Below are positions 8,359 through 34,606 of a DNA stretch of 34,606 bases, piece by piece. Source of the DNA: a virus. Lineage: Duplodnaviria > Caudoviricetes. Each line of letters begins with the position of its first letter. Position 1 is the first letter of the stretch. A model generated the notes under the pieces. It ran no database searches, was not told where the DNA came from, and saw only the letters and a list, made by a program, of their open reading frames with translations. The stretch lies in the IMG/VR virus record IMGVR_UViG_3300023263_000006, positions 1 through 34,606 of that record, one strand, 5' to 3'. Made by a program: the position numbers and the translations under genes.

Positions 8359-8489
8359 CGGGCGTAATGCGAGTGTCGCCGACTCAAGGATACTATGACA
8401 ATATACGATCAAGACTACATGGCAGAACTTGCCATGCAGCAAGAATACCAAAAACCGGGCGTAACAGATTCTGTCGCCGAGAATCAGGA
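8359..8489 (+). promoter_or_regulatory. Duplicated structured RNA motif CGGGCGTAA-N2-3-stem-GTCGCCG-stem flanking the scaffold start
   Basis: Copy 1 8359-8385 (stem GAGT/ACTC); copy 2 8456-8485 (stem GATTCT/AGAATC); identical loop and 5' segment. Confidence 0.65.
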
Positions 8490-9177
8490 AACAGCTGTTT
8501 CACAAGTAGAACCCGCGGAGTCAACTCCACAGGCTGAACAGTTCCTTGAGGAAGCAAAACCGGCCGTTGAGGCTGGGAATGACAAGGAATATAACTTCAG
8601 AGCTCTACGAGAGGAACTAGCGCAAATTAAAGAAGATCGGGATCGTCTAAGAGGCGATTTTGAAGATCTTCGCAGGCAACAAGTGCAACGTCAACCTGAG
8701 CCGTCTCGTAAGCGAGCTATTGATGAGATAAACTCTGATGATCTCGTCACAGGTGCACAATTCAAGCAGGCCATGGCAGAGCGTGAAGCTGAGTATCAAC
8801 TCATGCTTGGAGAGCTTCAAGTCAAATCGCAGAACCCCGATTACGATGAGGTGACATCTAAGTATGGAGTCCCTCTAATTGAAAAAGAACCTGATCTAGC
8901 GCAAGGATTTTTAGCCTCTCAGAACAAAGCCGCGTATCTCTACAAGCTAGGGAAAATGGCTATGCTTGCTGAGCAAAGGCAACAAGTACCAGAACCTGTG
9001 ATGCCTTCTCCGCAGCCATCAAAAGTGGCAGAACGCATTGTAGAAAACTCTAGAAAGCCTGGCACGCTATCCAACGCTGTTGGTGGTGCTGGCAACCTCT
9101 CTAAAGCAGACTACTATGCTACAATGTCGGACGCAGAATTTACAGCCATGGTACAAAAGAACCTTGACTCGATCTAA
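8395..9177 (+). CDS. Capsid scaffolding protein
   Basis: Acidic disordered N-terminus, coiled coil (NFRALREE...), C-terminal MSDAEF motif; immediately upstream of capsid gene. Confidence 0.8.
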   Translation: MTIYDQDYMAELAMQQEYQKPGVTDSVAENQETAVSQVEPAESTPQAEQFLEEAKPAVEAGNDKEYNFRALREELAQIKEDRDRLRGDFEDLRRQQVQRQPEPSRKRAIDEINSDDLVTGAQFKQAMAEREAEYQLMLGELQVKSQNPDYDEVTSKYGVPLIEKEPDLAQGFLASQNKAAYLYKLGKMAMLAEQRQQVPEPVMPSPQPSKVAERIVENSRKPGTLSNAVGGAGNLSKADYYATMSDAEFTAMVQKNLDSI

Positions 9178-9193: not shown

Positions 9194-10135
9194 ATGGCAA
9201 TGACAACATTAACGCAACTTCCTCCAGAAGTGCGTACCTATTTCGATAGGATGTTGCTTACACTGGCAAGACCATATTTCATCTACGATCTTTTCGCTCA
9301 GAAGCGTCAAATTCCGCTTAATTCTGGTGATCAGATGGTATTTGCAAGATACGGTACTTTAAGTGCAGCAACTATCCCACTAACCGATGGACAAACTCCA
9401 GCCGGTTCACAACTTTCAAGAACAGACTTTAAAGCAGCTATTAGCTGGTATGGCGACTATGTAACTATATCAGACCAAGTTCAGTTTGTGGTGCAAGACC
9501 GCGTTCTAAACGAAGCTACAAAAGTTCTGTCACTGCAACTCGGTTTGACAATCGACACTCTCATACGCGATATGATGGTTTCGACTGCATCTACCATTGC
9601 TGCTACAGAAGGTATAAACGGTAATACACCTACTGAAATCACTGACGGTGATATTCAAACGGCTATCGTTGCTCTACGTCAAGGGAATGCTCGTCTAATG
9701 ACGAACCCACTTCCTGGCGAGAACAAGTTTGGTACAGCGCCTGTACGTGCATCGTACTGGGGCTTTATGAGCGTGGATATGCAAAAAGACCTAGAAGCTG
9801 TATCAAGCTTCCTGTCTGCTGCTAACTACCCTAACCAATCCAATGCTCTAGAAGCTGAATGGGGTTCCACAAGGAATGTCAGATGGCTGCTGAACACCAA
9901 TGGTTATAACACTGGTGGAGATGTTCCAATTTACTCAAGCTTTATCCTCGGTCAAGAGGCATATGGCGTAGTAAGACTTGGTGCTAAGGAAGCAGAATTT
10001 ATCGTGAAGCCACTTGGCGCTAGCGGTACTGCTGACCCATTAAATCAACGTGGAACTGTTGGCTACAAGTATCCTTTCGCAACAAGGATCTTGAACGACA
10101 ACTGGATCACACGTTTAATCTCGACACTGGCTTAA
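9194..10135 (+). CDS. Major capsid protein (N4-gp56 family, HK97 fold)
   Basis: FAQKRQIPLNSGD, LTDGQTP, YGDYVTISD, ADPLNQRGTVGYK motifs. Confidence 0.9.
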   Translation: MAMTTLTQLPPEVRTYFDRMLLTLARPYFIYDLFAQKRQIPLNSGDQMVFARYGTLSAATIPLTDGQTPAGSQLSRTDFKAAISWYGDYVTISDQVQFVVQDRVLNEATKVLSLQLGLTIDTLIRDMMVSTASTIAATEGINGNTPTEITDGDIQTAIVALRQGNARLMTNPLPGENKFGTAPVRASYWGFMSVDMQKDLEAVSSFLSAANYPNQSNALEAEWGSTRNVRWLLNTNGYNTGGDVPIYSSFILGQEAYGVVRLGAKEAEFIVKPLGASGTADPLNQRGTVGYKYPFATRILNDNWITRLISTLA

Positions 10136-12686: not shown

Positions 12687-13310
12687 ATGGCAGATTATGA
12701 TCCACTTATCCCACAAGCTAATGACCTAATTAGCCAATCACAAGCAGATATCCTGAACAACTTTGGAGAGTTGAATACTATATTCAATAATGACCATTAT
12801 ACTTGGGATTACTCTACTTCAGCCTATCGAGGATTGCATCGAAAGATAACATTTCCACTTGCTTTAGGGTCCGATCCGGCTCTTGCCGGAATGGCAGGAT
12901 ATTTATTCCTCAAAAATGATCCAAATGATGCTTCTGCAAGGCCTCAAGTATACTACAAAAATATTACAGAAACCTTGCAAGTAACCAACCGCTTTCATAG
13001 CGCTGTGAGCGATGGGTATATCCAGTTGCCTGGAGGCATTATATTGATGTGGGGAACTGCTGCAATACCTAACGCAGCGTCTGGACAAGTTAACGTTACG
13101 TTTCCAGTAATCGCAAATTATACGGGTGCTCCATCTGGATTTCCAAATAACGTATTTAACATTCAGATATCAATACAAGGCGCCTCTTCCAATAGTGGTA
13201 TTACTTATATTATTGGTTCTGGAACACCACCAACTGCCGCAGGATTTCAATTTAGATTTAGCAATAATACGCAGAGTGCAACTTTATACTGGTTTGCAAT
13301 AGGTAATTAA
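12687..13310 (+). CDS. Tail-associated protein with fibre-type C-terminal domain
   Basis: AGGAGA RBS before ATG 12687; GYIQLPGGIILMWG...VTFP...FPNNVFNI...YWFAIG motif common in tail-fibre C-termini. Confidence 0.7.
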   Translation: MADYDPLIPQANDLISQSQADILNNFGELNTIFNNDHYTWDYSTSAYRGLHRKITFPLALGSDPALAGMAGYLFLKNDPNDASARPQVYYKNITETLQVTNRFHSAVSDGYIQLPGGIILMWGTAAIPNAASGQVNVTFPVIANYTGAPSGFPNNVFNIQISIQGASSNSGITYIIGSGTPPTAAGFQFRFSNNTQSATLYWFAIGN

Positions 13311-15952
13311 TGAGCTCACCAACAAGTTATCAGCCGTTTTTGATAGGACAGTTCACCACTGGCCAGTTTAGCTATCTCCAACCATGGCAATCGCCACATG
13401 ATGCTTTTGAGCCATTGGTTAATGCTTATGCCTATCGTGGTGGCATTCAAAAGCGTCAGGGCTATCAAGAATGCGGGTTTACAGGACTGCTGCGTTATCA
13501 GAACAATGAACATGCTGATGATGGGAATGGTGGTGTAAACTACACGCTCAATTTGACTCACTTTCCTGTGGCGCCAAGTTCAGTAACTGTAACAGCCTTA
13601 GTTGGTGCAGTAGTCTTAACAATGACTGATGTTCCTGGAGTGTATCCCGCAGGTACTTTTGCAGGTGCCTTAGATGCAGGTAGCACAATAGATTACTTTA
13701 CCGGTGTGATTACTATGGTTGCCTCTGGTGGTGTAGATGCTGGCACTCCTATCATGGTCCAATATACTTTTACTAATAGCCAAACAGCTGAAAATATTGG
13801 CACAGGTGATGGTGTCACCTTAACCTTTAATGGCATACTTGGATCAATCCCTGTCGTACCTCTCTCTATAGAAATCACCACTACCACACTTGCTGGAGCC
13901 ACAACAATATCTGATGATGGCAATGGCAATCTAATAGGAACTTTCATAGATCCCATTAGCGACATCGATTACACCACGGGTGTCTGGAACCTGATCTTTA
14001 CTTCGCCAGTTGTAAACGGAACTGACATCATCATAACCTACATACAAGTAGGAGATGGATCCCCCATCATGGGCATAAACTACTTCGAAAATTCACTTGA
14101 CACTAATGAGTTGATGACAGTAGAAGATCAAAAAAGGATGGCTGTTTTTAATAGGACAACTAAACTTTTCGACCCAATTCAGTGCTTTGACCAGGACTTT
14201 TTTACTGTAAACAGTGCTGTTGCAGTTACAACTGGTGCAATTACCCTTCCTTGGACTGATATAGCTCCTTTTTCTGTATCCATTAGTGATGGTACCAATA
14301 CTATTACTGATATTCCTGGTGCTTATCCAGCTGGAACGTTTACAACTTCTGCAACGCTAAATACACTCAATACATCAGTAATAAATTATGCCACAGGTGT
14401 TATTACCATTACTCATGCAGCCTATGCAGCGGTCCCTGTTGTATTGCATATAGAAGCAAATCTTCAGGGGGATTACTTTACTGGTGGAGATGACGATTTT
14501 TTCAAGTTTGCTAACTGGAAAGCTAGAGATGAATTGCCTACGTATGAATATCTTACCAATAACAAAGATCGAATTACGCTTTTTGATGGCACATGTTTAT
14601 CTCGGCCTAATTTCCCGATTTATGAAGATCAAATTGCAGGTGGCATTGCCTTAGTAGAGGGACAGACCTATTATCCAAATTTCAATGGTATTGTCAAAAC
14701 TTTGGACATAAAGGTTTATAAAAACAGGTTACTGTTCTTTAGGCCTACAATAAATACATATGCAGCTGTTCCACATACAACTCCAAACGGTACTATAATA
14801 GAGCCACAAGTTGTAAGATATAGCTCAGAATTTTATACTTTCGGCACAAATATAACAATACCATTTGACTTTGTAGCTGATGTAGCTGGACATGGAGGGG
14901 TTGCAGATGCGCCTACACCTGACTGGATTATCTGCGCCGAGTTCTTAAGAGATGCTATTGTAGTTTTCTTTGAGAAATCCACATGGTTATTCCGTTTTAC
15001 TGGCGCTGCTACCGGTACCATATTTCGATGGGATCAAATAAATAGCTCTCGGAACTCCAATGCTCCATATGGATCTATATCTTATGATGGCTCTGCAACA
15101 TCTATGGGTACAAAAGGTTTAATTTCTTGTGATGGTACAAATGTTGATCGTTATGATCAGTCTGTAATAGATCAATATACAGACATAGACAACGATAATT
15201 TTGTACAATGTCAGGCAGTTCGTGATGATATTCTAAATCAATCTTGGATGATTTATCCATCAGTATCACGTAATGTGGATAATCGATTTTCTGATAAATC
15301 CATAATGTACAATTTCTTAGAGCAGAATTTTGCTACATATAAAATTAACCTATCCACCGTAGGTATTGAAAATACTTATCAAGATATAACATGGGCGAGT
15401 TTTGCTCATGGAAGTGGGGTATGGACCGAAGGACTAACTTGGGTTCAAGCGAATTTTAACTGGAATAAGTTTGTAGCTCAAAATTTATCACCTCAAGTAT
15501 TTGGTGGAGACCAAAATGGCTTTGTCTACATCATGAATGTCACAGAAACAGATAATGGCGGTCATATCGACGTAGAAATAAAGTCAGCTCGTTGGAATCC
15601 ATTCATACAAACTGGTGAGCGCTGCCGTTTTGGATATATAGATTTCTATTATCAGATCAATGAAGACGTGACACTTCAAATAGATATATTTGGTAACAAT
15701 TCTAAGAGTCCAAATTACACTAAATACTTAACACTCAATGGACCTGCCAATGATGATTATGCTTGGAAGCGACTCTTTGTTAACTTACAAGGTGAATTCA
15801 TAAGAATAGAGATTACTACGCCATTTATTCCTCAAGGAACAATCAATGAAGATCAGACTGATGATATTCCTAACAACGGGACATTCCTGATTAGCGGTAT
15901 TATTCTTTGGGCGGCTCCTGCAGGTAGATTGGCGCCAGGAGTTCTCATATGA
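13310..15952 (+). CDS. Tail nozzle / DNA stabilization protein (P22 gp10 or T7 gp12-like) with inserted beta modules
   Basis: 880 aa; NAYAYRGGIQKRQGY N-terminus, VYKNRLLF, VRYS, beta-propeller-like composition; synteny. Confidence 0.7.
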   Translation: MSSPTSYQPFLIGQFTTGQFSYLQPWQSPHDAFEPLVNAYAYRGGIQKRQGYQECGFTGLLRYQNNEHADDGNGGVNYTLNLTHFPVAPSSVTVTALVGAVVLTMTDVPGVYPAGTFAGALDAGSTIDYFTGVITMVASGGVDAGTPIMVQYTFTNSQTAENIGTGDGVTLTFNGILGSIPVVPLSIEITTTTLAGATTISDDGNGNLIGTFIDPISDIDYTTGVWNLIFTSPVVNGTDIIITYIQVGDGSPIMGINYFENSLDTNELMTVEDQKRMAVFNRTTKLFDPIQCFDQDFFTVNSAVAVTTGAITLPWTDIAPFSVSISDGTNTITDIPGAYPAGTFTTSATLNTLNTSVINYATGVITITHAAYAAVPVVLHIEANLQGDYFTGGDDDFFKFANWKARDELPTYEYLTNNKDRITLFDGTCLSRPNFPIYEDQIAGGIALVEGQTYYPNFNGIVKTLDIKVYKNRLLFFRPTINTYAAVPHTTPNGTIIEPQVVRYSSEFYTFGTNITIPFDFVADVAGHGGVADAPTPDWIICAEFLRDAIVVFFEKSTWLFRFTGAATGTIFRWDQINSSRNSNAPYGSISYDGSATSMGTKGLISCDGTNVDRYDQSVIDQYTDIDNDNFVQCQAVRDDILNQSWMIYPSVSRNVDNRFSDKSIMYNFLEQNFATYKINLSTVGIENTYQDITWASFAHGSGVWTEGLTWVQANFNWNKFVAQNLSPQVFGGDQNGFVYIMNVTETDNGGHIDVEIKSARWNPFIQTGERCRFGYIDFYYQINEDVTLQIDIFGNNSKSPNYTKYLTLNGPANDDYAWKRLFVNLQGEFIRIEITTPFIPQGTINEDQTDDIPNNGTFLISGIILWAAPAGRLAPGVLI

Positions 15953-17083: not shown

Positions 17084-17092
17084 GGGGAAATT

Positions 17093-19778: not shown

Positions 19779-19909
19779 TATAATTTCTCCATAAGTTTTT
19801 TAAATTGTTCTTTTTGTCTTTTATCATATTCATCATAGATGTACGTGATTTAGTCAGAGCAAAGCCAAGTGAGAATGAAAAAAAATAACATATAGCCTAA
19901 AATTGTCAT
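19778..19909 (-). pseudogene. Small TM ORF interrupted by an in-frame TAA (MTILGYMLFFFILTWLCSD*ITYIYDEYDKRQKEQFKKLMEKL*)
   Basis: Coupled start (ATGA), AGGAG RBS; the frame continues past TAA to a stop that overlaps the next ATG. Confidence 0.45.
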
Positions 19910-21496: not shown

Positions 21497-23809
21497 ATGT
21501 CGTCATTCACAGAGCGTCCTTTAGCCTATATGGGAGAGCCAAATGCATCTACTACAGTTGCTGGCGTTGCCGAATTTGCTACTGTTGCAGAAACAGTTGC
21601 AGGCGTTCGTACAGATGTAGCCACTACACCAGCAGGCGTTGCTGCTGTAGCCATCGCAGGCGCCCCTGCAGCTAGCACAGTAGTTGCTGGTATCATAGAA
21701 ATAGCAACAGATGCAGAAGCAGTAGCAGGAGTAGATAACGATTTAGCGATTGTTCCTACAAACTTGGCAGCAGTATTCGCAGCTCCTCCTGCAATAGGCG
21801 GCACAACTCCTGGAGCCGGTACATTCACAGATCTTACAGCCGACTCTACAGGTGCTATTAGCCTAGATGCCGATGCAGCCTCTCACTTCGCTGTATCCGG
21901 TGCTGGTGTTGATCTTACGCTAGAAAGCGCAGCTGGTCGAGTTGTAATTAATGGTGAAGAAGCCGCTGCCGATGCTATCAGAATCGTTTCTGCCGCTGGT
22001 GGTCTTGATGTAGATACAGCGCTACTCTTAAGCCTTACTTCTTCTAGAAACAACGCGCAAGCTATACAGATTAACGCTTCAGCTGGTGGTATCGATATTA
22101 CTGCTACTGGTGCTGCAACAGAAGACATAGACATCGTAAATACAGGTGGTTCTGTAAATATTTCTGCTACAGAAGCCGCTGCCGATGCTGTTACCATTGC
22201 TGCAAGTGCCGGTGGTATCGATATTACAGCTACTGGCGGTGATATGGACATTACAGCTTCTGGTGCTGGTCTTACACTAACCTCTACAGAAAACTCTGCT
22301 GATTCGATAGCAATTATATCTACAACAGGTGGTATCGACATTACGGCTAGTGGCGCTGCCGCAGGCGAGGACATCGATATTACAACTACCTCATCAATCA
22401 ACCTTACAGCTACTGAGAATGCCGCTAATGCTATCTATCTTAGAGCAAACGGTGGAGTCACTGAAACAGTGAAAATCCACGCAGACCAAGGTACAGGTGT
22501 AGCGAGCGTAGAAGTTGTTTCCGACGTTGGTGGAGTAACAATCACAGGTGGCGTTGCCTCTGCTGATGCAATCAACATCGTAGCTTCAAACGCTGCTGGT
22601 GGTATAGACGTTGATTCTGGTACTGCAGGTGTTATTGTAGATACTACTGGTGCTATATCCCTCGATGCGGCCGCAGCATCAAACTTTACTGTCACAGGTG
22701 CTTTTGATGTAAGTGTGATTACCACTCTAGGTTCAGCAAATATTACTGCTGGTGAAGATGCAGCTGATGCAATCGTTCTTTCAGCGGGTGCAGGTGGTAT
22801 TGATATCCTAGCAACAGGTGCAGCAGGACAAGACATTGACATAGTAAACACAGGTGGTTCTGTAAATATCTCTGCAACAGAAAGTGCTGTTGACTCTATA
22901 AAAATCGAATCTACTGCAGGTGGTATCGACATCCTGGCTTCTGGCGCTGCTGCCGGTGAAGACATCGACATCATAGCTACTGGTTCATCTGTAAATATCT
23001 CATCGACAGAAAACGCCGCCGACTCAATAGTCATCACTTCAACAGTTGGTGGTATCGATATTCTAGCTTCAGGTGCCGGTGCGGGAGAAGACATTGACAT
23101 TATTGCTACTGGATCATCAGTAAACATCTCTGCAACAGAAAGTGCTGCTGATTCAATTACTATCGTTTCTACAGCTGGTGGTATCGACATTCTGGCCTCA
23201 GGAGCTGCTGCTGGTGAAGATATTGATATCGTCGCTACAGGATCATCTGTAAACATAAGTGCTACTGAAAGTGCTGCCGACTCGATTACAATCATATCCA
23301 CAGCAGGTGGTATCGATATTTCAGCTAGCGGTGCTGCTGCTGGCGAGGATATTGATATAACATCTACAGGTAGTTCTATCAATATAACAGCAACTGAAAA
23401 CGTATCTGATGCGATTGTAATTAACGCTTCAGGAGCTGCATCAGGCATCACTATAGACTGTGGAACAGTTGGTGTAACAATCGGTACAGGTGTAAACCAT
23501 GCTGTAACTTCAGTTGCAACAGCTGCATCTCCTTACTCTGTACTTGGAACAGACTACTTCATCACTACAGACTCAACTGGTGGTGCAATGACAATTACAT
23601 TGCCTGCAGCACCTGCTACAGGTCGTACAGTAATTGTATATGACGGTGCTGGTCAAGCTGCTGCTGGTGGTAACGTAACCGTTGACGGTAATGGTAAGAA
23701 CATTGCGGCTGCTGGCACTTCGGCCGCTACAAAACTACTGAACACAGCTTATGAGTCGTATACTCTAACTTATAATGGCACCCTCTGGTGTGGTCAGAAC
23801 ATAGTTTAA
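21497..23809 (+). CDS. Large repetitive fibre/spike protein (43-aa beta repeats)
   Basis: N-terminal AST.VAG..E.AT.AE.VAG fibre repeats; GGIDILASGAAAGEDIDIIATGSSVNISATESAADSI repeats; C-terminal domain shared with 24732..26246. Confidence 0.75.
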   Translation: MSSFTERPLAYMGEPNASTTVAGVAEFATVAETVAGVRTDVATTPAGVAAVAIAGAPAASTVVAGIIEIATDAEAVAGVDNDLAIVPTNLAAVFAAPPAIGGTTPGAGTFTDLTADSTGAISLDADAASHFAVSGAGVDLTLESAAGRVVINGEEAAADAIRIVSAAGGLDVDTALLLSLTSSRNNAQAIQINASAGGIDITATGAATEDIDIVNTGGSVNISATEAAADAVTIAASAGGIDITATGGDMDITASGAGLTLTSTENSADSIAIISTTGGIDITASGAAAGEDIDITTTSSINLTATENAANAIYLRANGGVTETVKIHADQGTGVASVEVVSDVGGVTITGGVASADAINIVASNAAGGIDVDSGTAGVIVDTTGAISLDAAAASNFTVTGAFDVSVITTLGSANITAGEDAADAIVLSAGAGGIDILATGAAGQDIDIVNTGGSVNISATESAVDSIKIESTAGGIDILASGAAAGEDIDIIATGSSVNISSTENAADSIVITSTVGGIDILASGAGAGEDIDIIATGSSVNISATESAADSITIVSTAGGIDILASGAAAGEDIDIVATGSSVNISATESAADSITIISTAGGIDISASGAAAGEDIDITSTGSSINITATENVSDAIVINASGAASGITIDCGTVGVTIGTGVNHAVTSVATAASPYSVLGTDYFITTDSTGGAMTITLPAAPATGRTVIVYDGAGQAAAGGNVTVDGNGKNIAAAGTSAATKLLNTAYESYTLTYNGTLWCGQNIV
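22793..23434 (+). repeat. Tandem coding repeat, 129-nt unit (about 5 copies, more degenerate copies upstream)
   Basis: GGTGGTAT(C/T)GA(C/T)AT recurs at 22793, 22919, 23048, 23177, 23306. Confidence 0.85.
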
Positions 23810-23828
23810 TAACTAACGGAGTTTAGCG

Positions 23829-24152
23829 ATGCCTGCTGTACAAAGTAGACTAAGTTTCGAGACGCTGCGCAGTCAAGCGTCTCCTTTTGTGGCGTATACC
23901 AACCTTGGTACGCCCATGGCGAATCCGATACGAATCTTCAAGATTTCTAATGAATCAGATGCTGCCATCACCGTATCTTACGATGGTGGCACCACTGACC
24001 ATGAACACATTCCAGCTAATAGCTTTGTATTGATAGATATCACATCTAATAAGGTGTGGGACTGTCAATTCTGCTTGTCTGTAGGTGTTCAAGTTGCCAT
24101 AAAGGGCACAGGCTCAGGCACAGTTTATATGTCAACATATTATGCAACTTAA
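23829..24152 (+). CDS. Small beta-rich structural protein
   Basis: GGAG RBS; within the fibre module. Confidence 0.65.
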   Translation: MPAVQSRLSFETLRSQASPFVAYTNLGTPMANPIRIFKISNESDAAITVSYDGGTTDHEHIPANSFVLIDITSNKVWDCQFCLSVGVQVAIKGTGSGTVYMSTYYAT

Positions 24153-24160
24153 GGGGAACT

Positions 24161-24730
24161 ATGTCACAAGCCGGAGTATTAAATACAGCAGCAGGGCCGG
24201 TTCCTCCTACAGTAGCTACATCATATGAGACACAAAATGGAACGGCAGTCCCAGCGGCAAATGTACTTATTATTAATGCGATTGATTCCACAGAAACTAA
24301 TGACAATGGAATCATAGCAAAAGGTGGAGTAGTAGGTACTGGAACAGCCAATGAAGTAGATATTGTCATCACAAATAGATTTGTGGGAACCACAACTACA
24401 ACAGATGCAACGCCCGATACCTCTATATCTCTAGCCCTTGGAGCAACTCCTGGAGTCTATACTTTTGATATTCAGATAGCAGGCTATGATGCTACAGACG
24501 ATGAAGGGGTTGGCTATGCAATATTCGGCACGGTACGCACAACAGGTGCTGCGGCTACCGTAATAGGCACTCCAGATAAGATTGTTAATGAAGAAGCAGC
24601 TCCAGTAAACCTGTCGAGTTGTAACGCCAATTTAACAGCCTCTGGTAATAGCGCTGTGATCACTCTAACAGGTATTGCTGCAACAACAATTAGATGGCGA
24701 GTTTTATCAACATTTATATTTGTGAGTTAG
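24161..24730 (+). CDS. Structural protein of the fibre module (MSQAG...)
   Basis: AAGGGG RBS before ATG 24161; Thr/Gly/Ala-rich. Confidence 0.7.
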   Translation: MSQAGVLNTAAGPVPPTVATSYETQNGTAVPAANVLIINAIDSTETNDNGIIAKGGVVGTGTANEVDIVITNRFVGTTTTTDATPDTSISLALGATPGVYTFDIQIAGYDATDDEGVGYAIFGTVRTTGAAATVIGTPDKIVNEEAAPVNLSSCNANLTASGNSAVITLTGIAATTIRWRVLSTFIFVS

Positions 24731-24731
24731 A

Positions 24732-26246
24732 ATGGCCGGTTTTGAAAATGATATTTTATATGGAAGTAACGTCGACTTTAGAGGTGTAGAACCTGTTGTA
24801 GCACAAGTTACAGCTAACGGCCAACTACTTATCGGAGCGACAGCCTCCCCAAACATACGTGTAGGGGCTTTAGCCTCTGCAGGTGGCACAATTATCATCA
24901 CAACAGGTGCTGGCACTATAGACCTAGCTACATCTGGATCCGCCGTCGGCAATACCATCACAGGTGACTCTGGAGGAGCTTTAAGCCCTACAGCAGGTAA
25001 TTGGAACATCCTGGGTCAGCAGGCTGGTACATTAGCTGTAATGGACACAATAGGGTCAGGAAGTACATTAAGTATAGAAGATCGAACGTGGATTACTTCT
25101 TTTGTTGTAGACCAAAGCGCTACGGTAGGTTTAAGAGGTACGTTTACAACCATTCAAGCAGCGATTACAGCGGCTTCTTCAGGGCAAAATATATTTATCA
25201 GACCAGGAACATATACGGAGGATCTCACGCTAAAAGATGGCGTTAATCTTATCGGCATGTCCAATAGCTATTCTGCAGTTGCACCAGTTATTATACGTGG
25301 AAAATCTACTTTTACAACAGGAATAGCGTCTATTGACAATATTTCCTTTGTTACAAATTCTGATTACATTTCTGCCATTTCTGGAAGCGCACTTTTAAGT
25401 TATTATAGATGTTATTTCAATATACTAACAACAGGCGCATTTAATTTAAATAGCGGGCGCGTTAATCTTGTCCAATGCGGTTCTGTATCGGCTTCTGGAT
25501 CGACTTCAATGTTCACAGCAATAAACGCCTCTACAGTTTCAGTTTTTGGTAGTACTTTGATTGGCTCTTCAACAACAGCTAGTACATTTGCAAATACTAG
25601 TTCAATAACTGTAAGAAATAGTACTTTACAGGATTCAATCACAACTAGCAATACGGCAGTATTTGAGGCGCATAATTCCTCTTTTGGACGTACCTCTTCT
25701 GCCGTGAATGGATTAACCCATAACAGTACCGCAAGCGGTTGCTTAGCGTTTAATTGTGAGTTCTTGAGTCCGGGTGATACTTATAATATAAGTATTGGAA
25801 CCGGCGCAACGTTAACACTAGCTAATTGCACGATCCACACAGATCTGGCTTCCGGTCTGGCAATCACAGGCCTCGGAACACTAAAATATACCGGCCTTTC
25901 ATTTGCACAAACTGCAAGTACAATTGATACGACTACACAAGTTCCTTTAGTGACATCAAACGATGCACTTAAGATCAAATCACCGGCAGCTTATCCATAT
26001 ACCACAGTGCCACAAGATGCTGTTATTTTAGTGGATACATCCTCTGCAAGAACAATAACACCTCTTGCATCGCCTACAACTGGTCAGAAACATATAATAA
26101 AAGATAATGTGGGTTCCGCGGCAGCTAACAACATCACTATCACGCCTTCTGGAAAGAACATTGACGGAGCGGCTTCAAGTACGATCAATATCAACTATGG
26201 AAGTGTAACAATTGTATACGGGGGATCGGAGTGGCATATCGTGTAA
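24732..26246 (+). CDS. Tailspike/fibre with parallel beta-helix (pectate-lyase-like) region
   Basis: FTTIQAAITAA...IFIRPGTYTEDLTLKDGVNLIG beta-helix entry motif; C-terminal VDTSSARTITP...IKDNVGSAAANNITI domain. Confidence 0.8.
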   Translation: MAGFENDILYGSNVDFRGVEPVVAQVTANGQLLIGATASPNIRVGALASAGGTIIITTGAGTIDLATSGSAVGNTITGDSGGALSPTAGNWNILGQQAGTLAVMDTIGSGSTLSIEDRTWITSFVVDQSATVGLRGTFTTIQAAITAASSGQNIFIRPGTYTEDLTLKDGVNLIGMSNSYSAVAPVIIRGKSTFTTGIASIDNISFVTNSDYISAISGSALLSYYRCYFNILTTGAFNLNSGRVNLVQCGSVSASGSTSMFTAINASTVSVFGSTLIGSSTTASTFANTSSITVRNSTLQDSITTSNTAVFEAHNSSFGRTSSAVNGLTHNSTASGCLAFNCEFLSPGDTYNISIGTGATLTLANCTIHTDLASGLAITGLGTLKYTGLSFAQTASTIDTTTQVPLVTSNDALKIKSPAAYPYTTVPQDAVILVDTSSARTITPLASPTTGQKHIIKDNVGSAAANNITITPSGKNIDGAASSTININYGSVTIVYGGSEWHIV

Positions 26247-26249
26247 CTG

Positions 26250-26279
26250 TTGACACAAATAGAACCTTTGGTTTATACT
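26250..26279 (+). promoter_or_regulatory. Promoter of the GIY-YIG gene
   Basis: TTGACA-18-TATACT; GAGGT RBS. Confidence 0.7.
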
Positions 26280-26298
26280 TTACCTAAAAGAGGTAAAT

Positions 26299-27036
26299 AT
26301 GACTTCAGGAATTTATAAGATAAAAAGTTTGAAATGCGGAAAATGTTACTGGGGTTCTTCAAAGAACATATATAATAGATTTGCAACCCATAGGTATTGT
26401 CTAAATAAAAAAAAGCACGGAAATAAAACACTACAAAGTATTTATGATGAATATGGATTAGATAATCTACAATTTGAAATAGTTGAAGAATGTAGTTGTA
26501 ATGATTTAGAGCAACGTGAGAAGTATTATTTAGATAAGGATGAAAATAAAATAAATATATGGATAAATCCTTATTCTCCAAAGGGTTGTAAGCGAACAAA
26601 AAAACGAATTTGGTCACAAGAAGTAAAAGATAAGATTAGCAAAAGTGTTCGAGAAAGTCATTTAAAACATGGGCACCCATTGCTTGGGGTATCTATGAAA
26701 GAAGAGACGAAACGAAAAATAGGAAATGCCAACAGAGGCAATAAGTGGTCAGAAGAAAGTAAATTGAAGATCAAAGGAAGAGCATCTCCCAATAAGGGAA
26801 TTCCTCTTTCAGAAGAGACTAAATTAAAACTCAAGTTGGCAAACCTGGGGAAGCCCTGTAAACTTAAAGGTTTTGTAAAAGAGTTTCCTAAAGAGAAAGT
26901 TTGCATAAAATGTAAAGAGATGAAAAACATTCAAGCATATGGATTTTCAGGAAAATGGTATAGAAATATGTGTAGGAAATGCAAAGAACTACATAGAAAA
27001 CCTAGAAATAAAAGGAAGGTAAAACTTGGCTTATAA
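26299..27036 (+). CDS. Free-standing GIY-YIG homing endonuclease with NUMOD3-type repeats
   Basis: SGIYKI...YWGSSKNIYNRF..H...REKYY; SEETKRKIG/SEESKLKI/SEETKLKL repeats; C-terminal CxxC...CxxC; AT-rich relative to flanks. Confidence 0.9.
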   Translation: MTSGIYKIKSLKCGKCYWGSSKNIYNRFATHRYCLNKKKHGNKTLQSIYDEYGLDNLQFEIVEECSCNDLEQREKYYLDKDENKINIWINPYSPKGCKRTKKRIWSQEVKDKISKSVRESHLKHGHPLLGVSMKEETKRKIGNANRGNKWSEESKLKIKGRASPNKGIPLSEETKLKLKLANLGKPCKLKGFVKEFPKEKVCIKCKEMKNIQAYGFSGKWYRNMCRKCKELHRKPRNKRKVKLGL

Positions 27037-27664
27037 AAGTAAATTTCTAACACCAGCCGAAGGCGGATTAGGAGCTTCTACAACCGCTACATCTGCCAAA
27101 ATATTGATAGGTGATGGAACAAACTGGGTGGCTAGCACTCCGACATATCCTACTACCGCTGGTACTAGCGGAAATGTACTTACTAGCAATGGGACGAATT
27201 GGACTAGCGCCACAGCACCCGGTGGTGGCTTGTTGACCGCTACAGTAACGTTAACAAGTGCGCAAATTAAAGCATTAAATGCAACCCCGATACAACTCGT
27301 TGCTGCCCCAGGAGCAAATAAAATAATTATGCTCGAGCAAGCCGCAGCTAAATTTACCTATGGTGGAACAAACGTATTTGTAGCTGGCGCATCTCAAGTT
27401 ATTAATATATTTTGGAACAACGGAGTCACCGCGGCTTATTCTACAGGCGCGCCATTGATTTCAAACGCAACAATAGTAGGAAGTGCAAATAAATTTTGCG
27501 CAGGATTGAGTGGTCCAACTTCAGTAGTGAATCAGGTAGCAGGAATATTAGATAACGTTAATTTAGTCGTTCAAAATCCAATTGCTACAGAGATAACAGG
27601 TAATGCAGCAAATAACAACACAATAACTATAGTAGTTCAATATTGGATAGCTGATGTAACGTAG
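27026..27664 (+). CDS. Tail fibre-related protein
   Basis: TTG start with AGGAAGGT RBS; GTSGNVLTSNGTNWTS fibre motif. Confidence 0.7.
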   Translation: MAYKSKFLTPAEGGLGASTTATSAKILIGDGTNWVASTPTYPTTAGTSGNVLTSNGTNWTSATAPGGGLLTATVTLTSAQIKALNATPIQLVAAPGANKIIMLEQAAAKFTYGGTNVFVAGASQVINIFWNNGVTAAYSTGAPLISNATIVGSANKFCAGLSGPTSVVNQVAGILDNVNLVVQNPIATEITGNAANNNTITIVVQYWIADVT

Positions 27665-28606: not shown

Positions 28607-28788
28607 TATTTAATCATCCTAAATTTGTTGATTATGTTTTCCATAGCTTGTAATTGATAGCTGGTTAATTCTCCATATTCATTGAAATTACTTTCAATAG
28701 ACTCTATAAATTCACTGTCAAAACTTTCATGCTCTTCTGCATATTGTTTAATAGTTTCTATCATAAATTCAGGATCATCAAACATCAT
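28606..28788 (-). CDS. Small acidic hypothetical protein
   Basis: GGAGG RBS; coupled. Confidence 0.65.
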   Translation of the reverse strand: MMFDDPEFMIETIKQYAEEHESFDSEFIESIESNFNEYGELTSYQLQAMENIINKFRMIK

Positions 28789-29186
28789 TCCTCCAATTCT
28801 TTCATTAATGATTTAACAGTTTCTTGAAATGTCATCTTATGATGCATCATACACCACTGGATGGCATCGCCTTCTGCTTCGCAGTTTCCGCATATATAGC
28901 GATGAGTTTCAACAATGAATTGCCCCTTACCCTCATTGCAAAAAGGGCAATCACCAACAAAATAGGTCTTAGGATCAAGCTGAATGCATTGAATTATCAA
29001 CTTTGGCAGATCTATTTCCTCTCTGATTCTTTCGATGACTCCTTTATCTACTTTAACTTTTGAGTCATTTTTCTCAAAGTAACTACTCAATATTGCTAAA
29101 GCTTCTTCTCTAAGGTCGTTTTCAACACAAAAATACACACCTGAAAGTATGGCTTTCAGTACTTGCATTTCTTTATTTCTATCCAT
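28785..29186 (-). CDS. Stand-alone primase-type zinc-binding (zf-CHC2-like) protein
   Basis: IERIREEIDL...CPFCNE...F.V...YICGNC...GDAIQW.M....MTFQETVKSL; no TOPRIM domain. Confidence 0.75.
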   Translation of the reverse strand: MDRNKEMQVLKAILSGVYFCVENDLREEALAILSSYFEKNDSKVKVDKGVIERIREEIDLPKLIIQCIQLDPKTYFVGDCPFCNEGKGQFIVETHRYICGNCEAEGDAIQWCMMHHKMTFQETVKSLMKELEE

Positions 29187-29431: not shown

Positions 29432-30838
29432 TTAAGATAAATCGCTTTCTTCTTCTTCTCTAATTGGTTTATGTTCATTAAAATCCATTGATTTAAATCT
29501 TGAAAATTGAAGTTCTGTGGCAAGAAATAATGTTCCTGTTGATCCATGCCGATTTTTTTCTACTACAACACTTATCCTACCGGCGCCATCATTTGGATTG
29601 GTCATAGAAGGCCGATGCAAAAAGATTACCTGATCGGCGTCTTGCTCAATCGATCCCGACTCTCTAAGATCAGATAATTTTGGTTTACTATCTAATCGAT
29701 TTTCTACGCTACGATTTAATTGAGATAAACAAACGATCGGAATATCGAGCTCCATAGCCAATAGTTTAAGCTTTCTCGAGATGTCTGATACTTCATTGAC
29801 TCGACTATCACTATTTTTGTATTTGGCAGATCCGTTTATAAGTTGCAGATAATCAATGATTAACAGTTCTATTTTATGAACCTCTTTTAGCTTTTTTGCA
29901 GCAATCTTGATAGAAGAGATATCTACGCTGTGCGATGTGTAAAAGTGTATTGGTGCATCTTTAATTTTTTCAATCGTATCAGTAAGGTCAACCCAAAACT
30001 GATCTAGATGCCCTTTGTGAATCGCTTCTAAAGGAATTTTACCAACATTAGAGCAAATCTTTTCTATGATTTGTTGAGGGTCCATCTCAAGAGAAAATAT
30101 TCCTACAGGTTTATTTTTCCGAATGGCCTGCTCAATTGCGAATTCAATAGCAAGAGTTGTTTTACCGACCCCAGGTCTTGCCGCAACTATAATAAGATTT
30201 TTTTTCCCCAATCCATTTATTTGTTCATCAAGCTTCGGAAATCCAGTAGTAAGGCCCAAGCAATTCCCAAGCCCGGCTTGTTTTCGTTCTTCTTGTCTTT
30301 GCTGCATAAGCTCTAAAAAGCTTTCTGGTTGCTTTTCAGTTTTCCCTTCACATACTTGTTTGACATTAGTAAACTCATTAAATGATTTCTTTTTACCAAG
30401 ATTGTGCAACTCAGTACTTATCGAAGCTATGTGAATTTCCACAGGTTCTTGATTTTCAAGAACTTCTCTCGCCGATCGCTGGTGAAGATTGATAAGATCT
30501 CTTCTAATTGATTTGTCTAAAATTATATTTGTATACTCTTCCGAATCATAGGCAATGAGAGCAGCTTCTTTGCAGGTCATCAAGTAGGCTATGCCACCGG
30601 CCCTAGAAAGCTCTCCAGTCGCTCGTAATGACTCGACCAGTATCTGTAGTTCACCTGGCGTGTTTTTCTCGTAGAGGGCCTGCAAATGCGAAAAAACAAT
30701 AACATGCTTTTCTTCTAGAAAATCCTGCGGACACAATCTTTGACAAGCGAGGTCATTATCGCTTGCAGAAGAGAGCATCATCCCTAAGAGAATTGTTTCG
30801 GATTCAACCGCGTTTGGTAATTCTTGATATTTTTTCAT
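29432..30838 (-). CDS. dnaB: Replicative DNA helicase DnaB
   Basis: AARPGVGKT Walker A, FSLEM, IIDYLQL, LSQLNR, DLRESGSIEQDAD, KNRHG; full N-terminal domain. Confidence 0.97.
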   Translation of the reverse strand: MKKYQELPNAVESETILLGMMLSSASDNDLACQRLCPQDFLEEKHVIVFSHLQALYEKNTPGELQILVESLRATGELSRAGGIAYLMTCKEAALIAYDSEEYTNIILDKSIRRDLINLHQRSAREVLENQEPVEIHIASISTELHNLGKKKSFNEFTNVKQVCEGKTEKQPESFLELMQQRQEERKQAGLGNCLGLTTGFPKLDEQINGLGKKNLIIVAARPGVGKTTLAIEFAIEQAIRKNKPVGIFSLEMDPQQIIEKICSNVGKIPLEAIHKGHLDQFWVDLTDTIEKIKDAPIHFYTSHSVDISSIKIAAKKLKEVHKIELLIIDYLQLINGSAKYKNSDSRVNEVSDISRKLKLLAMELDIPIVCLSQLNRSVENRLDSKPKLSDLRESGSIEQDADQVIFLHRPSMTNPNDGAGRISVVVEKNRHGSTGTLFLATELQFSRFKSMDFNEHKPIREEEESDLS

Positions 30839-31682
30839 TTAACATCCTTATACATTCATTAAAGGTTTTTTCAAATAAGGCATCTGATTTGAAACTATGG
30901 TACTCCTTACCGTCGAAAATCACAAGCAAATCATCGTTCGTGTCACTGCAATAAACTTTAGCAATACCGCATAGTTCAATTATTTCATCTATCATAGGTT
31001 TCTTGTTATCAACTTTGTTTTTTAACCGGCCCCACCTTTCGTAGGGTTTTCTTTCTTGCTCCTGAGTTGGTTGATCTTGTCTAGAGAGGTATTCTTTGCA
31101 TAGGTTTGTGAATACCGCTACTGGCTTCTTTGGTGTTATGGGCATTCGGCTTATGCATCGCTTCGCGTAAGCTACAGCCTCTTTAGGGTAACGGCTTAGG
31201 ATTTGCTTGTCTTTGACTCCGAAAGGTAGGGCTTCGATGTCAGGTCTCATCGATGGAGTTTGTTTGGTTTCTTTTGGCTGATTCGAAGAATCTGCTTCGA
31301 ATTCGTATTTATTTAGTTTGTTTTCTTTTGTGGGGGTGATTTTCACCCTGGGGGCAGGGTGATTTTCACCCTGGTCATTATTATTTGAAACAACGAGTTC
31401 ATAAACTGTAGCCTCTTGGCCATTTGTGCCTGCAACATATTTTTTGCATAAGCCTAATTGTTCTAGTTTTTCCGTAGCTTTCCATAAAGCTTGGCGGTTC
31501 ACACCTGTCATTTTCTCCATTTGAGATATGCTAATACGATCTCGAAAATTTTCTTTATGGAAACCAAAGATTTTTCTACAAAGTGCACAAAGTACTTTGA
31601 ATTCAGTACCATTAAGACGACTCATCCAATAATCAAAAATGACGTTTGGGCTTTGAGTATAATTTGGGATTGGAATAGACAC
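30804..31682 (-). CDS. Replication initiator, lambda O-like N-terminal wHTH
   Basis: NYTQSPNVIFD...LNGTEFKVL..LCRKIFGFHK..DRISISQMEKMTG; directly upstream of dnaB; internal iterons. Confidence 0.85.
   Translation of the reverse strand: MSIPIPNYTQSPNVIFDYWMSRLNGTEFKVLCALCRKIFGFHKENFRDRISISQMEKMTGVNRQALWKATEKLEQLGLCKKYVAGTNGQEATVYELVVSNNNDQGENHPAPRVKITPTKENKLNKYEFEADSSNQPKETKQTPSMRPDIEALPFGVKDKQILSRYPKEAVAYAKRCISRMPITPKKPVAVFTNLCKEYLSRQDQPTQEQERKPYERWGRLKNKVDNKKPMIDEIIELCGIAKVYCSDTNDDLLVIFDGKEYHSFKSDALFEKTFNECIRMLNEKISRITKRG
31311..31374. repeat. Putative replication origin: two palindromic iterons plus an AT-rich tract
   Basis: GGGTGATTTTCACCCTGG at 31334-31351 and 31357-31374; T-rich 31311-31330. 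Confidence 0.75.
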
Positions 31683-31890: not shown

Positions 31891-32304
31891 ATGGAATGGC
31901 AAATTTTAACTACGTTTTTTTCTCTAATGTCACTAGTTCTTCTGGTTGTGATACTTATGGCACAAGCATTCATAAAGCGATCGCAAACTTCTATGTCTAA
32001 GGTACTTGTAGAACTTCTTTCGGATTCTCATTCGCTCTTATCCATTGTGCGTGAGATGGATAAGCAACAGGACCTCTTTGTTAGACAGATGCCTCCTCAT
32101 GAAGAAAGTGCCGTTGTTGTGCATCCTATGGACACAAAAGACCTTCCAGCTGGCCTTGTGTGGATGTCTACAGTAGAAGCTGTGACTCCAGAGATCATTC
32201 CAGCTGAAAGAAAGGCCACATCTCCGAAGAAACATGGCCGTAGTCGAGGTTCTAGAGGCGCTGTGTCTAAACAACGAAAGGTCAAAGCGAAGAAATCGGA
32301 ATAG
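31891..32304 (+). CDS. N-terminally membrane-anchored protein with basic tail, inverted within the early arm
   Basis: TM ILTTFFSLMSLVLLVVILMA; possible promoter TCTACA-17-TACGCT 31841-31869. Confidence 0.65.
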   Translation: MEWQILTTFFSLMSLVLLVVILMAQAFIKRSQTSMSKVLVELLSDSHSLLSIVREMDKQQDLFVRQMPPHEESAVVVHPMDTKDLPAGLVWMSTVEAVTPEIIPAERKATSPKKHGRSRGSRGAVSKQRKVKAKKSE

Positions 32305-32950
32305 ACTCCCCTGTATCATCAATTGGAAAACGCTTCTCATAGGCCTTAGCAAACCTTGATAAGTTGTTATCCTGGTTAGCAATTGCAGATTTCAGGATGT
32401 TAAACTCTGACGTCTTGTGCTCAATGCTCTTTTCCTTTACAAAAACGACCAAGGAAGCGCGATCGGCTATAACCCCTATCGTAGTCAGCTTTTCCATAAG
32501 ATCGTCGATTGTGAACGATTCTGGCGCGTTTTGAGTAGGCTTAGCTTCCTTAGGCCTTCTATCCACGCAACTTTCGGCATCATCATCCGCTTGGGCAACA
32601 CCAACAAGGGCCGCATAGCTATAGCGTCTAAAGTACGTCAGTGCGCTTCCAATGCTTTGAGGATCTTGCTTAGCCAAAACGATAGGCATTACGGACTTAA
32701 TCCACTGACCTGACTTATGCGCTAAAGTGCTTATTAAGCAAAGCTGAGCGTCTATTATGCCCGTAGTCTGTATGACTGCTAGGCCATTATTCGCAAGAGG
32801 CTCTTTTGCAGCATTTAAAATACTGTGCAGATCTGCGTAGGAGCTCTTGAAGAACGGGTTCTTGCTGTCCTTTATGGCGGGCATTAGACAGCCCTGGGTT
32901 TTTGATAAGGCTTCAGCCAGTTCGTTAATTTCTTGAGATTGCATATCCAT
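32282..32950 (-). CDS. erf: ERF-family ssDNA annealing recombinase
   Basis: INELAEALSKTQ...KDSKNPFFKSSYADL...GSALTYFRRYS...DDDA; start at ATG 32950. Confidence 0.9.
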   Translation of the reverse strand: MDMQSQEINELAEALSKTQGCLMPAIKDSKNPFFKSSYADLHSILNAAKEPLANNGLAVIQTTGIIDAQLCLISTLAHKSGQWIKSVMPIVLAKQDPQSIGSALTYFRRYSYAALVGVAQADDDAESCVDRRPKEAKPTQNAPESFTIDDLMEKLTTIGVIADRASLVVFVKEKSIEHKTSEFNILKSAIANQDNNLSRFAKAYEKRFPIDDTGESIPISSL

Positions 32951-32951
32951 T

Positions 32952-33020
32952 TTATTTTCCTTTAAGTTCAGTTGGCCATGGTTCGCCAAGTTCGGGTTCT
33001 GGTACCGGGTATATATTCAT
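32952..33020 (-). CDS. 22-aa micropeptide MNIYPVPEPELGEPWPTELKGK
   Basis: Perfect GGAGGTGA RBS; ends 1 nt before the erf start. Confidence 0.5.
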   Translation of the reverse strand: MNIYPVPEPELGEPWPTELKGK

Positions 33021-33605: not shown

Positions 33606-33634
33606 AGTGTAACATTACCCATCATTTCCCACAA
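33606..33634 (-). promoter_or_regulatory. Leftward promoter containing the 16-bp motif
   Basis: TTGTGG-17-TACACT; AGTGTAACATTACCCA 33606-33621. Confidence 0.6.
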
Positions 33635-34229
33635 GAATATTCGCATTATCCTTTTCTTCCCAGTACCGAATTGCTGCTTCTACGCATATGTCGAGCACAT
33701 TTTGATCAAACTCGAACTCATAGATAACAGGGGATTTTGGTGTGTATTCTATGCGCTTGATTGCACCTGTGCTACTGTCTCTAAATGTATGCTTGTCATG
33801 GCGTAAGTTAATCCATTGCATCTTGTTAGAAGTGCTGTAGCCATTTTCTCGTAAGAGATACCAGTAAAAGTGTGCTTGCATTTCCCATATAGCTTTTTTA
33901 GGAGACGCTGAGCATTTCCAGTCGATGAGCACGTCTGGGCCATGGCCTTGAAGTAAACCATCACATTCTCCAGTGATCATAAGCTTATCGCAATAGAGTC
34001 TTGGGATTTGTTCTATGTTAGGTTTCTTAACATCCCACATTTTATAGCTCTGAAAGTATGCCCGGGCACGATCTGTGTCAAAACAGACAAATTCACCTGC
34101 ACAATCCTGTATGATGGCATTGTGTACGTTTGTTCCTATCTTGGCTTTCTCTTCAAGTATCACTGGGTCGATGTCCGCATATGAATCGAACATCTGTAAT
34201 ATCTCACTAACTCTTACATGTTTACGCAT
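33615..34229 (-). CDS. PD-(D/E)XK exonuclease (RecB/Cas4-like fold)
   Basis: RVSEIL, GTNVHNAI, GECDGL, LIDWK, QAHFY motifs; partner of ERF. Confidence 0.85.
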   Translation of the reverse strand: MRKHVRVSEILQMFDSYADIDPVILEEKAKIGTNVHNAIIQDCAGEFVCFDTDRARAYFQSYKMWDVKKPNIEQIPRLYCDKLMITGECDGLLQGHGPDVLIDWKCSASPKKAIWEMQAHFYWYLLRENGYSTSNKMQWINLRHDKHTFRDSSTGAIKRIEYTPKSPVIYEFEFDQNVLDICVEAAIRYWEEKDNANILVGNDG

Positions 34230-34305: not shown

Positions 34306-34605
34306 ATGAATCTTAGGGAATGGTTAGATTCGGAATGCGTTGAAATTAAGCAACTTGCAGGCAAACTAGGAGTTAACAGAAAAACGCTATATAATTGGAT
34401 GACCCGTGGTGTTGTACCCCTTAGGATACATCGTGCGTTGATTCAGAGAGTTACAAAAGGACAAGTGAAAATAGGAGATTGGGAGGATGGAGAACAAATT
34501 GCTGCTAAACGCCTACGAGGCCGCAGAAAGAATGAAGTGCGGAGTCAGAAACGTTTGGTTACAGATGAGGCGATTAAGCCTAAAGTCGATAAAAAGGGAC
34601 GGTAA
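34306..34605 (+). CDS. Cro-like HTH transcriptional regulator (3' end runs off the window)
   Basis: MNLREWL...IKQLAGKLGVNRKTLYNW...P...I..VTKGQV; AAGGT RBS. Confidence 0.8.
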   Translation: MNLREWLDSECVEIKQLAGKLGVNRKTLYNWMTRGVVPLRIHRALIQRVTKGQVKIGDWEDGEQIAAKRLRGRRKNEVRSQKRLVTDEAIKPKVDKKGR

Positions 34606-34606
34606 A

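Follow-up and report, generated by a model that had tools for sequence, protein, structure and literature searches.

Results

Gene content of the analyzed sequence

The window, i.e., the whole stretch of 34,606 nucleotides that was analyzed, constitutes an entire IMG/VR record (IMGVR_UViG_3300023263_000006), which is linear, 34.6 kb long and has a completeness estimate of 90%. It represents about 90% of the ~40-kb genome of a dsDNA phage with a predicted short tail. The main genes and features are as follows.

2658..3326, plus strand: collagen-like minor tail protein (Pfam/PHROG), with a homologue (65% identity) on a phage contig of 40.7 kb from the bin of Chlamydiota genome G302
3434..5578, plus strand: P22-like portal protein (PF16510, PHROG 156)
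8395..9177, plus strand: probable scaffold protein, without a family match and assigned because it precedes the capsid gene and is conserved in relatives
9194..10135, plus strand: major capsid protein of the N4-gp56 family (TIGR04387, 199.6 bits with a cut-off of 60; PHROG 1357)
13310..15952, plus strand: 880-aa virion protein, likely the tail nozzle, which contains the protospacer and is kept in relatives and prophages
13406..13439, plus strand: protospacer, identical at 30 of 34 nt to spacer 9 from the type I-C-like array carried by G306, a Chlamydiota genome
16400..19698, plus strand: three genes at the position of podovirus ejection proteins, without family matches and assigned by position; homologues in relatives
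21497..27664, plus strand: fibre/adhesin-like module with proteins of 770, 107, 190-224, 504 and 212 aa (PHROG 910/972 for the 770-aa protein)
26299-27036: GIY-YIG endonuclease gene interrupting the fibre module (PF01541)
28785..29186, minus strand: stand-alone CHC2 zinc finger, i.e., a DnaG-type zinc-binding domain (PF01807)
29432..30838, minus strand: intact DnaB replicative helicase of the chlamydia-type group, 468 aa (Pfam DnaB and DnaB_C, homologues, trees)
30804..31682, minus strand: lambda O-like replication initiator, whose gene overlaps the dnaB start (PF04492, PHROG 678)
31334-31351 and 31357-31374: a pair of exact 18-nt direct repeats within the initiator gene, next to a stretch rich in A/T
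32282..32989, minus strand: ERF single-strand annealing protein (PF04404, PHROG 2324)
33615..34229, minus strand: exonuclease (PHROG 298)
34306..34605, plus strand: Cro-like HTH regulator, divergent from the exonuclease operon (weak PHROG 35/409 matches)
34487..34606, plus strand: start (40 codons) of an EUO-like tandem-HTH gene that is truncated by the end of the window, with 55% identity to the complete gene in relative G001

The major capsid protein (TIGR04387) and the portal (PF16510) assign the window to Caudoviricetes. No sheath, tube or tape-measure protein was matched among the 51 window ORFs in Pfam or PHROG, and a podovirus morphotype, i.e., a short non-contractile tail, is predicted from the gene content. 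The 880-aa virion protein has no match in Pfam or PHROG, and its look-alikes in the Atlas are unnamed Uroviricota proteins. The large terminase is absent from the window, which is ~5 kb short, and is present in two relatives, namely G001 (PHROG 2) and L059, the portal of which is 89.5% identical to that of the window. In near-complete relatives, the order of genes past the end of the window is EUO-like, RusA, terS and terL. A metagenome scan for the missing ~5 kb matched 3 of 242 stretches (the window's own contig and two 76% relatives) and did not recover it. The main DNA match among sequencing runs is a soil metagenome, which may be the source sample, with partial matches in soil and drinking water; no RNA run is listed as matching the window.

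An endolysin or holin was not recognized by Pfam or PHROG, which divergence may explain. Searches for tRNA genes and Rfam families yielded no match within the window, and a promoter scan found 23 sites compared to 18.6 ± 3.9 in shuffled sequences, i.e., no signal. No integrase was found among the 51 ORFs of the window, which is incomplete, or among 49 of 53 further ORFs from relatives G001 and G012 (Pfam, PHROG). As an integrase is missing from the window and from two near-complete relatives, this branch of the phage family is likely lytic or episomal.

The 770-aa protein (21497-23809) is rich in Ala, Gly, Ser and Thr, contains tandem repeats of ~27 residues and is a candidate receptor-binding fibre. 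Free-standing homing endonucleases of the HNH (20169-20837) and GIY-YIG (26299-27036) types are located in the virion module. The window also contains four DUF551 genes (2278-2505, 5717-6637), three of them directly after the portal gene on the opposite strand; relative G001 has five DUF551 genes at the same place.

Replication block and phylogeny of the helicase

The 18-nt repeats are likely origin iterons by analogy with lambdoid phages, where the origin is located inside the initiator gene. Membership in SF4 calls for a DnaB domain at the N-terminus and, at the C-terminus, an ATPase domain that contains Walker A, the motifs H2-H4 and an arginine finger; the adjacent helicase matches PF00772 and PF03796 above cut-off and has the helicase motifs at residues 220, 329, 370, 398 and 428.

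The initial annotation of the window proposed, from short motifs, that this helicase resembles chlamydial chromosomal DnaB. All ten quoted motifs are present (residues 7, 81, 100, 173, 244, 341, 370, 398, 415 and 428), and four of them (PVGIFSLEM, CLSQL, EQDAD and KNRH) appear to be general DnaB motifs that carry little lineage signal. The resemblance itself is borne out by homology searches: among the best 120 of 6,274 homologues, all eight that carry a taxon name belong to Chlamydiota, at 35-37% identity. The same best 120 include 15 closer homologues (39-77%), all on contigs of at most 41 kb, followed by DnaB proteins at 34-39%. The linker, which the annotation had considered distinctive, comprises 109-111 residues in 17 DnaB proteins of the phage clade and 113-115 in 16 chlamydial ones, compared to a median of 98 in 113 outgroup sequences; likewise, the stretch containing KNSDSR has 24 residues in the phage and chlamydial rows versus a median of 21. 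The window protein keeps 13 of 44 chlamydial signature columns and the outgroups a median of 4 (maximum 10), a comparison that is partly circular because the outgroup was chosen from the 226-row DnaB tree.

A profile search of 1.84 billion representatives contributed 145 additional DnaB rows. In the resulting 226-row FastTree, the phage clade, the chlamydial chromosomal DnaB proteins and a swarm of long branches are split from 122 other DnaB proteins with a support of 99. A mixture-model tree of 41 rows recovers the chlamydia-type group at 100/100, the phage clade at 100/99 and the crown of chromosomal copies at 99/95, and places the phage clade outside this crown. The phylogeny called for by the initial annotation thus groups the helicase with chlamydial DnaB proteins, though outside the chromosomal crown. 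The protein is not a chromosomal orthologue: in addition to its position outside the crown, it scores 349.6 bits against PRK06321, a model that we take to be chlamydial in scope, where the cut-off is 751. Consequently, the helicase is chlamydia-type but does not by itself identify a donor family; its position could result from either an old capture or fast evolution. The chlamydia-type group also takes in the DnaB of a Simkania plasmid and the helicase of a chromosomal island in G306 (see below). One member of the swarm is 99% identical to the Simkania plasmid DnaB, which is the best plasmid match of 1,449, and most of the swarm is without a taxon name. Elsewhere, the DnaB profile detected only generic DnaB proteins in IMG/VR (29-41%, used as outgroups), the best match among deposited phages was only about 34%, and no chlamydial DnaB was named among 23 matches in the PDB.

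A family of related phage genomes

The window's capsid protein identified 132 loci in IMG/VR, the best 80 of which are 61-94% identical. We searched 46 records of relatives, many of them 38-42 kb long and 15 with direct terminal repeats. A close full-length DnaB was found in two of the 46 (76% and 48% identity) and a more distant one of the same group in one; 13 have the C-terminal helicase domain alone. With a close DnaB in only two of 46 relatives, the helicase is a swappable module in this family, and the host must therefore be argued from other genes.

Outside these records, the best capsid match among 50,697 deposited phages was 32%, and no chlamydial plasmid was matched by the window's capsid among 72,556 plasmids. 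We found no account of a family of phages with this capsid, or of a phage-borne EUO, in literature in which subscription papers were thinly covered; the accessible part of bioRxiv 2024.09.13.612973 contained nothing relevant. The data point to a large family of free ~40-kb phage genomes, undescribed in the literature found, whose likely hosts are environmental chlamydiae.

At least 16 of the 80 family loci (L044-L047, L053, L054, L057, L059-L066 and L070), as well as G001 (G001:C1:5137-6618), have a capsid gene that is divided between two or three ORFs, with no Rfam intron match at gathering score in the four split loci scanned. One record (L058, IMGVR_UViG_3300049927_000163) is 73.5 kb long, nearly twice the usual length, and may be a concatemer or include host flanks. 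DNA methyltransferases of the C5 and N6/N4 types occur in G001 and G012 (L316:8680-9945, L316:15926-17353 and L318:887-1708).

CRISPR spacers in chlamydial genomes

A cas1 match was found in 22 of 400 Chlamydiota genomes; loci were taken from 19 of these, and 14 contained arrays, with 396 unique spacers in total. As suggested in the initial annotation, these spacers were compared with the window, and one of 371, located in the chromosome of G306, matches it at 30 of 34 positions. Three of the four mismatches fall at third codon positions. The next best spacer has 9 mismatches and the best of 3,710 shuffled spacers has 8; no exact match to the window exists among the chlamydial spacers searched. 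When positions 1-20000 of the window were compared by BLAST with seven genomes of the family of G306, the protospacer site alone was found (E = 2.5e-4). The 3.9-Mb contig with the array also carries euo, at a distance of 33 kb, and the DnaB of this contig falls among chlamydial DnaB proteins.

Among the family loci searched, the window is the best match of this spacer, and the next four sites, in other members, have 5-7 mismatches. Each of these four is followed by GAA, the complement of TTC, which is the PAM of type I-C systems; the window's own protospacer is flanked by GTG, not GAA. The four mismatches and the GTG flank suggest that the spacer was acquired from a relative and not from the window phage. 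As GAA follows 8 of 17 homologous sites, the PAM gives only moderate support. Another spacer (G361 spacer 8) matches two members of a different subclade, G031 and G016, at 29 of 33 positions; it is kept as secondary because the chlamydial origin of its 26.5-kb contig is less sure. As a control, the best spacer match in 1.09 Mb of unrelated phage DNA has 8 mismatches, where the family DNA searched amounts to 2.02 Mb. Matches of five spacers at 6-7 mismatches are within chance and were not counted.

Capsid relatives in bacterial genomes

The initial annotation also suggested a search for portal and capsid homologues in Chlamydiota. The capsid profile has matches in 9 of 400 Chlamydiota genomes (one further genome was unscored), including an apparently intact syntenic prophage of ~36 kb (G335:C1:42000-78700) that carries a portal gene and lies on a 137-kb contig with chlamydial genes on both sides. 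This prophage contains portal (30%), capsid (35%), terL in two pieces, terS and tail genes; the flanking genes are Waddlia-like, and the CTP synthase of the contig clusters with that of Waddlia. No att repeat or integrase was found in the prophage, and genes with a Panacea domain are located at its right end. In addition, a Rhabdochlamydia chromosome contains a broken capsid gene (46%; G221:C4). The remaining strong matches in Chlamydiota (G199, G445, G353, G302 and G050) are phage-only contigs and were not counted as integration. Chlamydial chromosomes yielded no close prophage from the subclade to which the window belongs.

In control genomes, N4-type capsids occur in 5 of 250 other Pseudomonadota and the capsid in none of 150 other Acidobacteriota. 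A quick tree joins all seven included capsids from chlamydial genomes to the family at 99 SH-aLRT, apart from the five proteobacterial capsids; the capsids of the prophage and of the pseudogene form long branches. Among 185,579 GTDB genomes, four close capsid loci were detected, one in a Chlamydiota bin and three in non-chlamydial bins. Two of these three are on short contigs (Aquaspirillum and Chthonomonas bins) where only phage genes are seen.

Terminase islands in chlamydial chromosomes

The genome with the matching spacer, G306, contains a 16.6-kb island (G306:C1:3466855-3483528) between 58-bp repeats at a tRNA-Leu gene, with genes for an integrase, a chlamydia-type DnaB, terS, terL and a small toxin-antitoxin-like pair. 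We considered this element as a prophage remnant and rejected this assignment, as it is an island with neither capsid nor portal between its 58-bp repeats. A third copy of the att repeat is found near position 3,490,882.

The terminase of G001 has matches in 13 of 151 Chlamydiota genomes, six of them full-length at 51-57% identity, and none of the 13 genomes has a capsid match. Of five terminase regions that were opened, four show terS-terL but neither a capsid nor a portal gene, and three of these four are close to a tRNA gene; the fifth has a different portal. Identity by itself says little about the relationship of these terminases, being 51-55% for the islands versus 45-47% for enterobacterial phages. 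In a tree with four proteobacterial outgroups, seven chlamydial chromosomal terminases group with eight from the family in a single clade (98/97), and the terminase of the fifth region lies outside it. This shared clade supports the assignment of the host to Chlamydiota and makes the phage family a candidate helper of the capsid-less terminase islands, a role to which we give about an even chance.

The EUO-like regulator

The EUO-like protein of G001 is 137 aa long, and the last 120 nt of the window are the start of its homologue. In the main matching sequencing run, which may be the source, a contig continues the window's EUO-like gene in frame, as judged by eye. The 40-aa fragment scores 23.2 bits against a profile of the phage proteins and 0.2 bits against a chlamydia-only profile; the window's own copy has no direct match to EUO and its first recognition helix is altered in the motif, and the link runs via the G001 protein.

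EUO-like genes were found in 22 of 46 relatives, the other 24 having no match. A profile built from these 22 phage proteins alone recognizes 99 of 100 Chlamydiota genomes at E ≤ 2e-40. The control genomes were Pseudomonadota and Acidobacteriota; a full-length match occurs in none of 250 other Pseudomonadota and none of 151 Acidobacteriota. The one full-length match in the 251 Pseudomonadota comes from the Aquaspirillum bin, where it sits on a family-like contig beside genes for RusA and an exonuclease, and the remaining matches in both phyla cover one HTH only, at about 1e-7. Conversely, the chlamydia-only profile recognizes all 23 full-length phage EUO-like proteins (E = 1e-48 to 4e-16). In three of four chlamydial genomes tested, the G001 protein matches a gene between neighbours that we take to be recJ-like and protease-like, and two of the chromosomal matches fall into 90% clusters with Waddlia and Rhabdochlamydia proteins that bear the name EUO. 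Two top EUO matches are labelled Verrucomicrobiota, and both are 52-78% identical to chlamydial EUO. The protein has no match among deposited phages. Several chlamydial genomes contain two euo copies, some in tandem (G221:C12:24073-27228, G104, G107, G129, G136, G140, G142 and G146).

The phage proteins share with chlamydial EUO two HTH_17-type domains and the same linker; they differ from it in the first recognition helix, which is altered in the window's subclade. Their identity to the nearest chlamydial EUO is 27-49%, compared to a mean of 63% among the chromosomal EUO proteins. In three copies (L190, L192 and L202) the first-helix motif is preserved and the identity to chlamydial EUO is 44-49%, whereas the copies of the window and its closest relatives belong to the most diverged ones (27-34%) and have lost the motif. 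EUO itself is reported in 99% of chlamydial genomes in the part of the source consulted (PMC8242063).

One possible role of the phage protein is that of a working EUO mimic, which would repress late genes of the host and hold the cell as a replicating reticulate body (RB) during phage production. The conserved copies of L190, L192 and L202 speak for this role, as does the observation, in the accessible portion of PMC10653925, that overexpressed EUO blocks conversion of RB to elementary bodies (EB) and delays host lysis in C. trachomatis. However, the same source reports that the overexpression also lowered chlamydial replication, and 24 of 46 relatives have no EUO-like match, the window's copy is among those that lost the motif, and the location of the gene, with a cro-like gene on one side and rusA on the other, is a common one for phage regulators. 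On balance, we consider mimicry rather unlikely; sequence conservation makes it plausible for the conserved copies and doubtful for that of the window. Given its diverged first recognition helix, the regulator of the window phage more likely acts on phage promoters than on late genes of the host.

Discussion

Host of the phage family

Comparison of sequences leads us to conclude that the host of the window phage is very probably an environmental member of Chlamydiota. This is the host proposed in the initial annotation, and the proposal now draws on the spacer, the EUO-like genes and the capsid and terminase relatives instead of on DnaB alone. A different origin of these signals would be a host among other bacteria that share protist cells with chlamydiae (e.g., Babelota, Legionellales or Rickettsiales), the DnaB and EUO-like genes being acquired from the co-resident chlamydiae. 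The modularity of DnaB and its position outside the chromosomal crown are consistent with such acquisition, and the genomes searched as controls came from Pseudomonadota and Acidobacteriota. On the other hand, chlamydial arrays target two subclades of the phage family, capsid and terminase relatives in chlamydial chromosomes group with the family, and EUO-like genes in 22 of 46 members are too widespread for chance pick-up. We regard a co-resident host as very improbable.

That free-living bacteria of soil or freshwater, such as Acidobacteriota, are the hosts of the family is extremely improbable in our assessment. Such hosts come into consideration from a 242-kb contig (G049:C68) on which a family member with 73% capsid identity is contiguous with Acidobacteriaceae DNA, and from the family contigs binned with Aquaspirillum and Chthonomonas. 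However, the phage part of G049:C68 has an exact terminal repeat of 352 bp at its two ends (2-353 and 41722-42073), it joins the middle of an efflux adaptor-like gene where the GC content changes from ~44% to 56%, there is no left host flank, and none of the 150 other Acidobacteriota has the capsid. The terminal repeat, the junction within a gene and the GC jump are what a complete phage genome fused to a fragment would show, and the apparent Acidobacteriota prophage is likely an assembly chimera. The phage part (G049:C68:1-42073, L226-L228) is a complete family genome with a tyrosine integrase and with RtcB-like and RNA-ligase-like genes (labels assigned by eye); its terminal repeat is located inside a terS-like gene, which would fit pac-site packaging.

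The initial annotation held that spacers or prophage homologues in an unrelated phylum would argue against a chlamydial host. The matching spacer is chlamydial; three of the four close GTDB capsids are in non-chlamydial bins, one of them the likely chimera.

Proposed biology and significance

In an environmental chlamydia as the host, the O-like initiator would bind the 18-nt repeats and load the phage DnaB, which in turn would recruit the primase and polymerase of the host. We propose that compatibility with the host replisome would be the reason for retaining a chlamydia-type helicase. Recombination would proceed through ERF and the exonuclease, and the DNA would be packaged by a headful-type mechanism. 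The particle may adsorb to extracellular EB or be engulfed with them, and the phage would replicate in RB, with the EUO-like protein as a transcription regulator, in the window phage more likely of phage promoters. A broader scenario is that a widespread podovirus family preys on environmental chlamydiae in protists and animals, carries EUO homologues that hold the host in the replicating form (or was the source of chlamydial EUO), and is the missing helper of the terminase islands at tRNA genes; taken as a whole, this is tentative and we would not expect all of it to hold.

Targets for chlamydial CRISPR spacers and a large family of free genomes are now in hand. A 40-kb tailed phage would be a route for gene transfer between bacteria that are otherwise sealed in host vacuoles. 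The family is also a candidate helper of chlamydial satellite-like islands and may serve as a genetic tool in environmental chlamydiae, and a virus-borne EUO homologue makes two questions testable, namely whether phages steer the RB-EB switch and where EUO originated.

Comparison with known systems

P22-type podoviruses share with the window a P22-like portal, a ~40-kb genome, an initiator-helicase pair with internal repeats, ERF and a gene order of the short-tail type; gp18 and gp12 of P22 are an O-like initiator and a DnaB-like helicase. The window differs in its N4-gp56 capsid, chlamydia-type DnaB and EUO-like gene, and no integrase or CI was found in it.

Larger phage particles have been reported from electron microscopy of Neochlamydia and of chlamydiae in bivalves. 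The initial annotation stated that characterized chlamydiaphages are small ssDNA Microviridae. This agrees with the consulted part of PMC4589997 as far as characterized phages are concerned, but tailed-phage genes have been published on chlamydial plasmids and islands. In the accessible sections of these reports, they comprise a block of phage genes on plasmids of Protochlamydia massiliensis and Criblamydia sequanensis (PMC7846284), a terminase island in Pr. naegleriophila (PMC5010888) and a 19.3-kb prophage predicted by PHAST in a Parachlamydia MAG (PMC5654357). They resemble the present family in being tailed-phage genes in environmental chlamydiae; as far as these sections describe them, they are fragments (tail tip protein L, terminase), unlike the large family of free ~40-kb genomes with spacer links. 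Unclassified viruses have also been predicted for Chlamydiales in protist single cells (PMC12644861, available excerpt). Earlier searches for targets of chlamydial CRISPR spacers found none, and knowledge of chlamydial phages was called very limited, according to excerpts of PMC5010888 and the supplement of PMC8242063.

Chlamydiamicroviruses (Gokushovirinae; PMC4589997) likewise have a chlamydial host and must reach an intracellular bacterium. They have 4.5-5 kb of ssDNA and Chlamydiaceae hosts, in contrast to the ~40-kb dsDNA genomes with portal, terminase and fibres and the environmental hosts of the present family; the window, a 34.6-kb record with a portal and an N4-type capsid, is not a Chlamydiamicrovirus. 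Finally, phages WO of Wolbachia and APSE of Hamiltonella are, in the partial accounts consulted, also dsDNA tailed phages of host-restricted bacteria. Their hosts belong to another phylum, whereas the host of the present family has a developmental cycle with two forms, and its members are mostly free genomes and not prophages.
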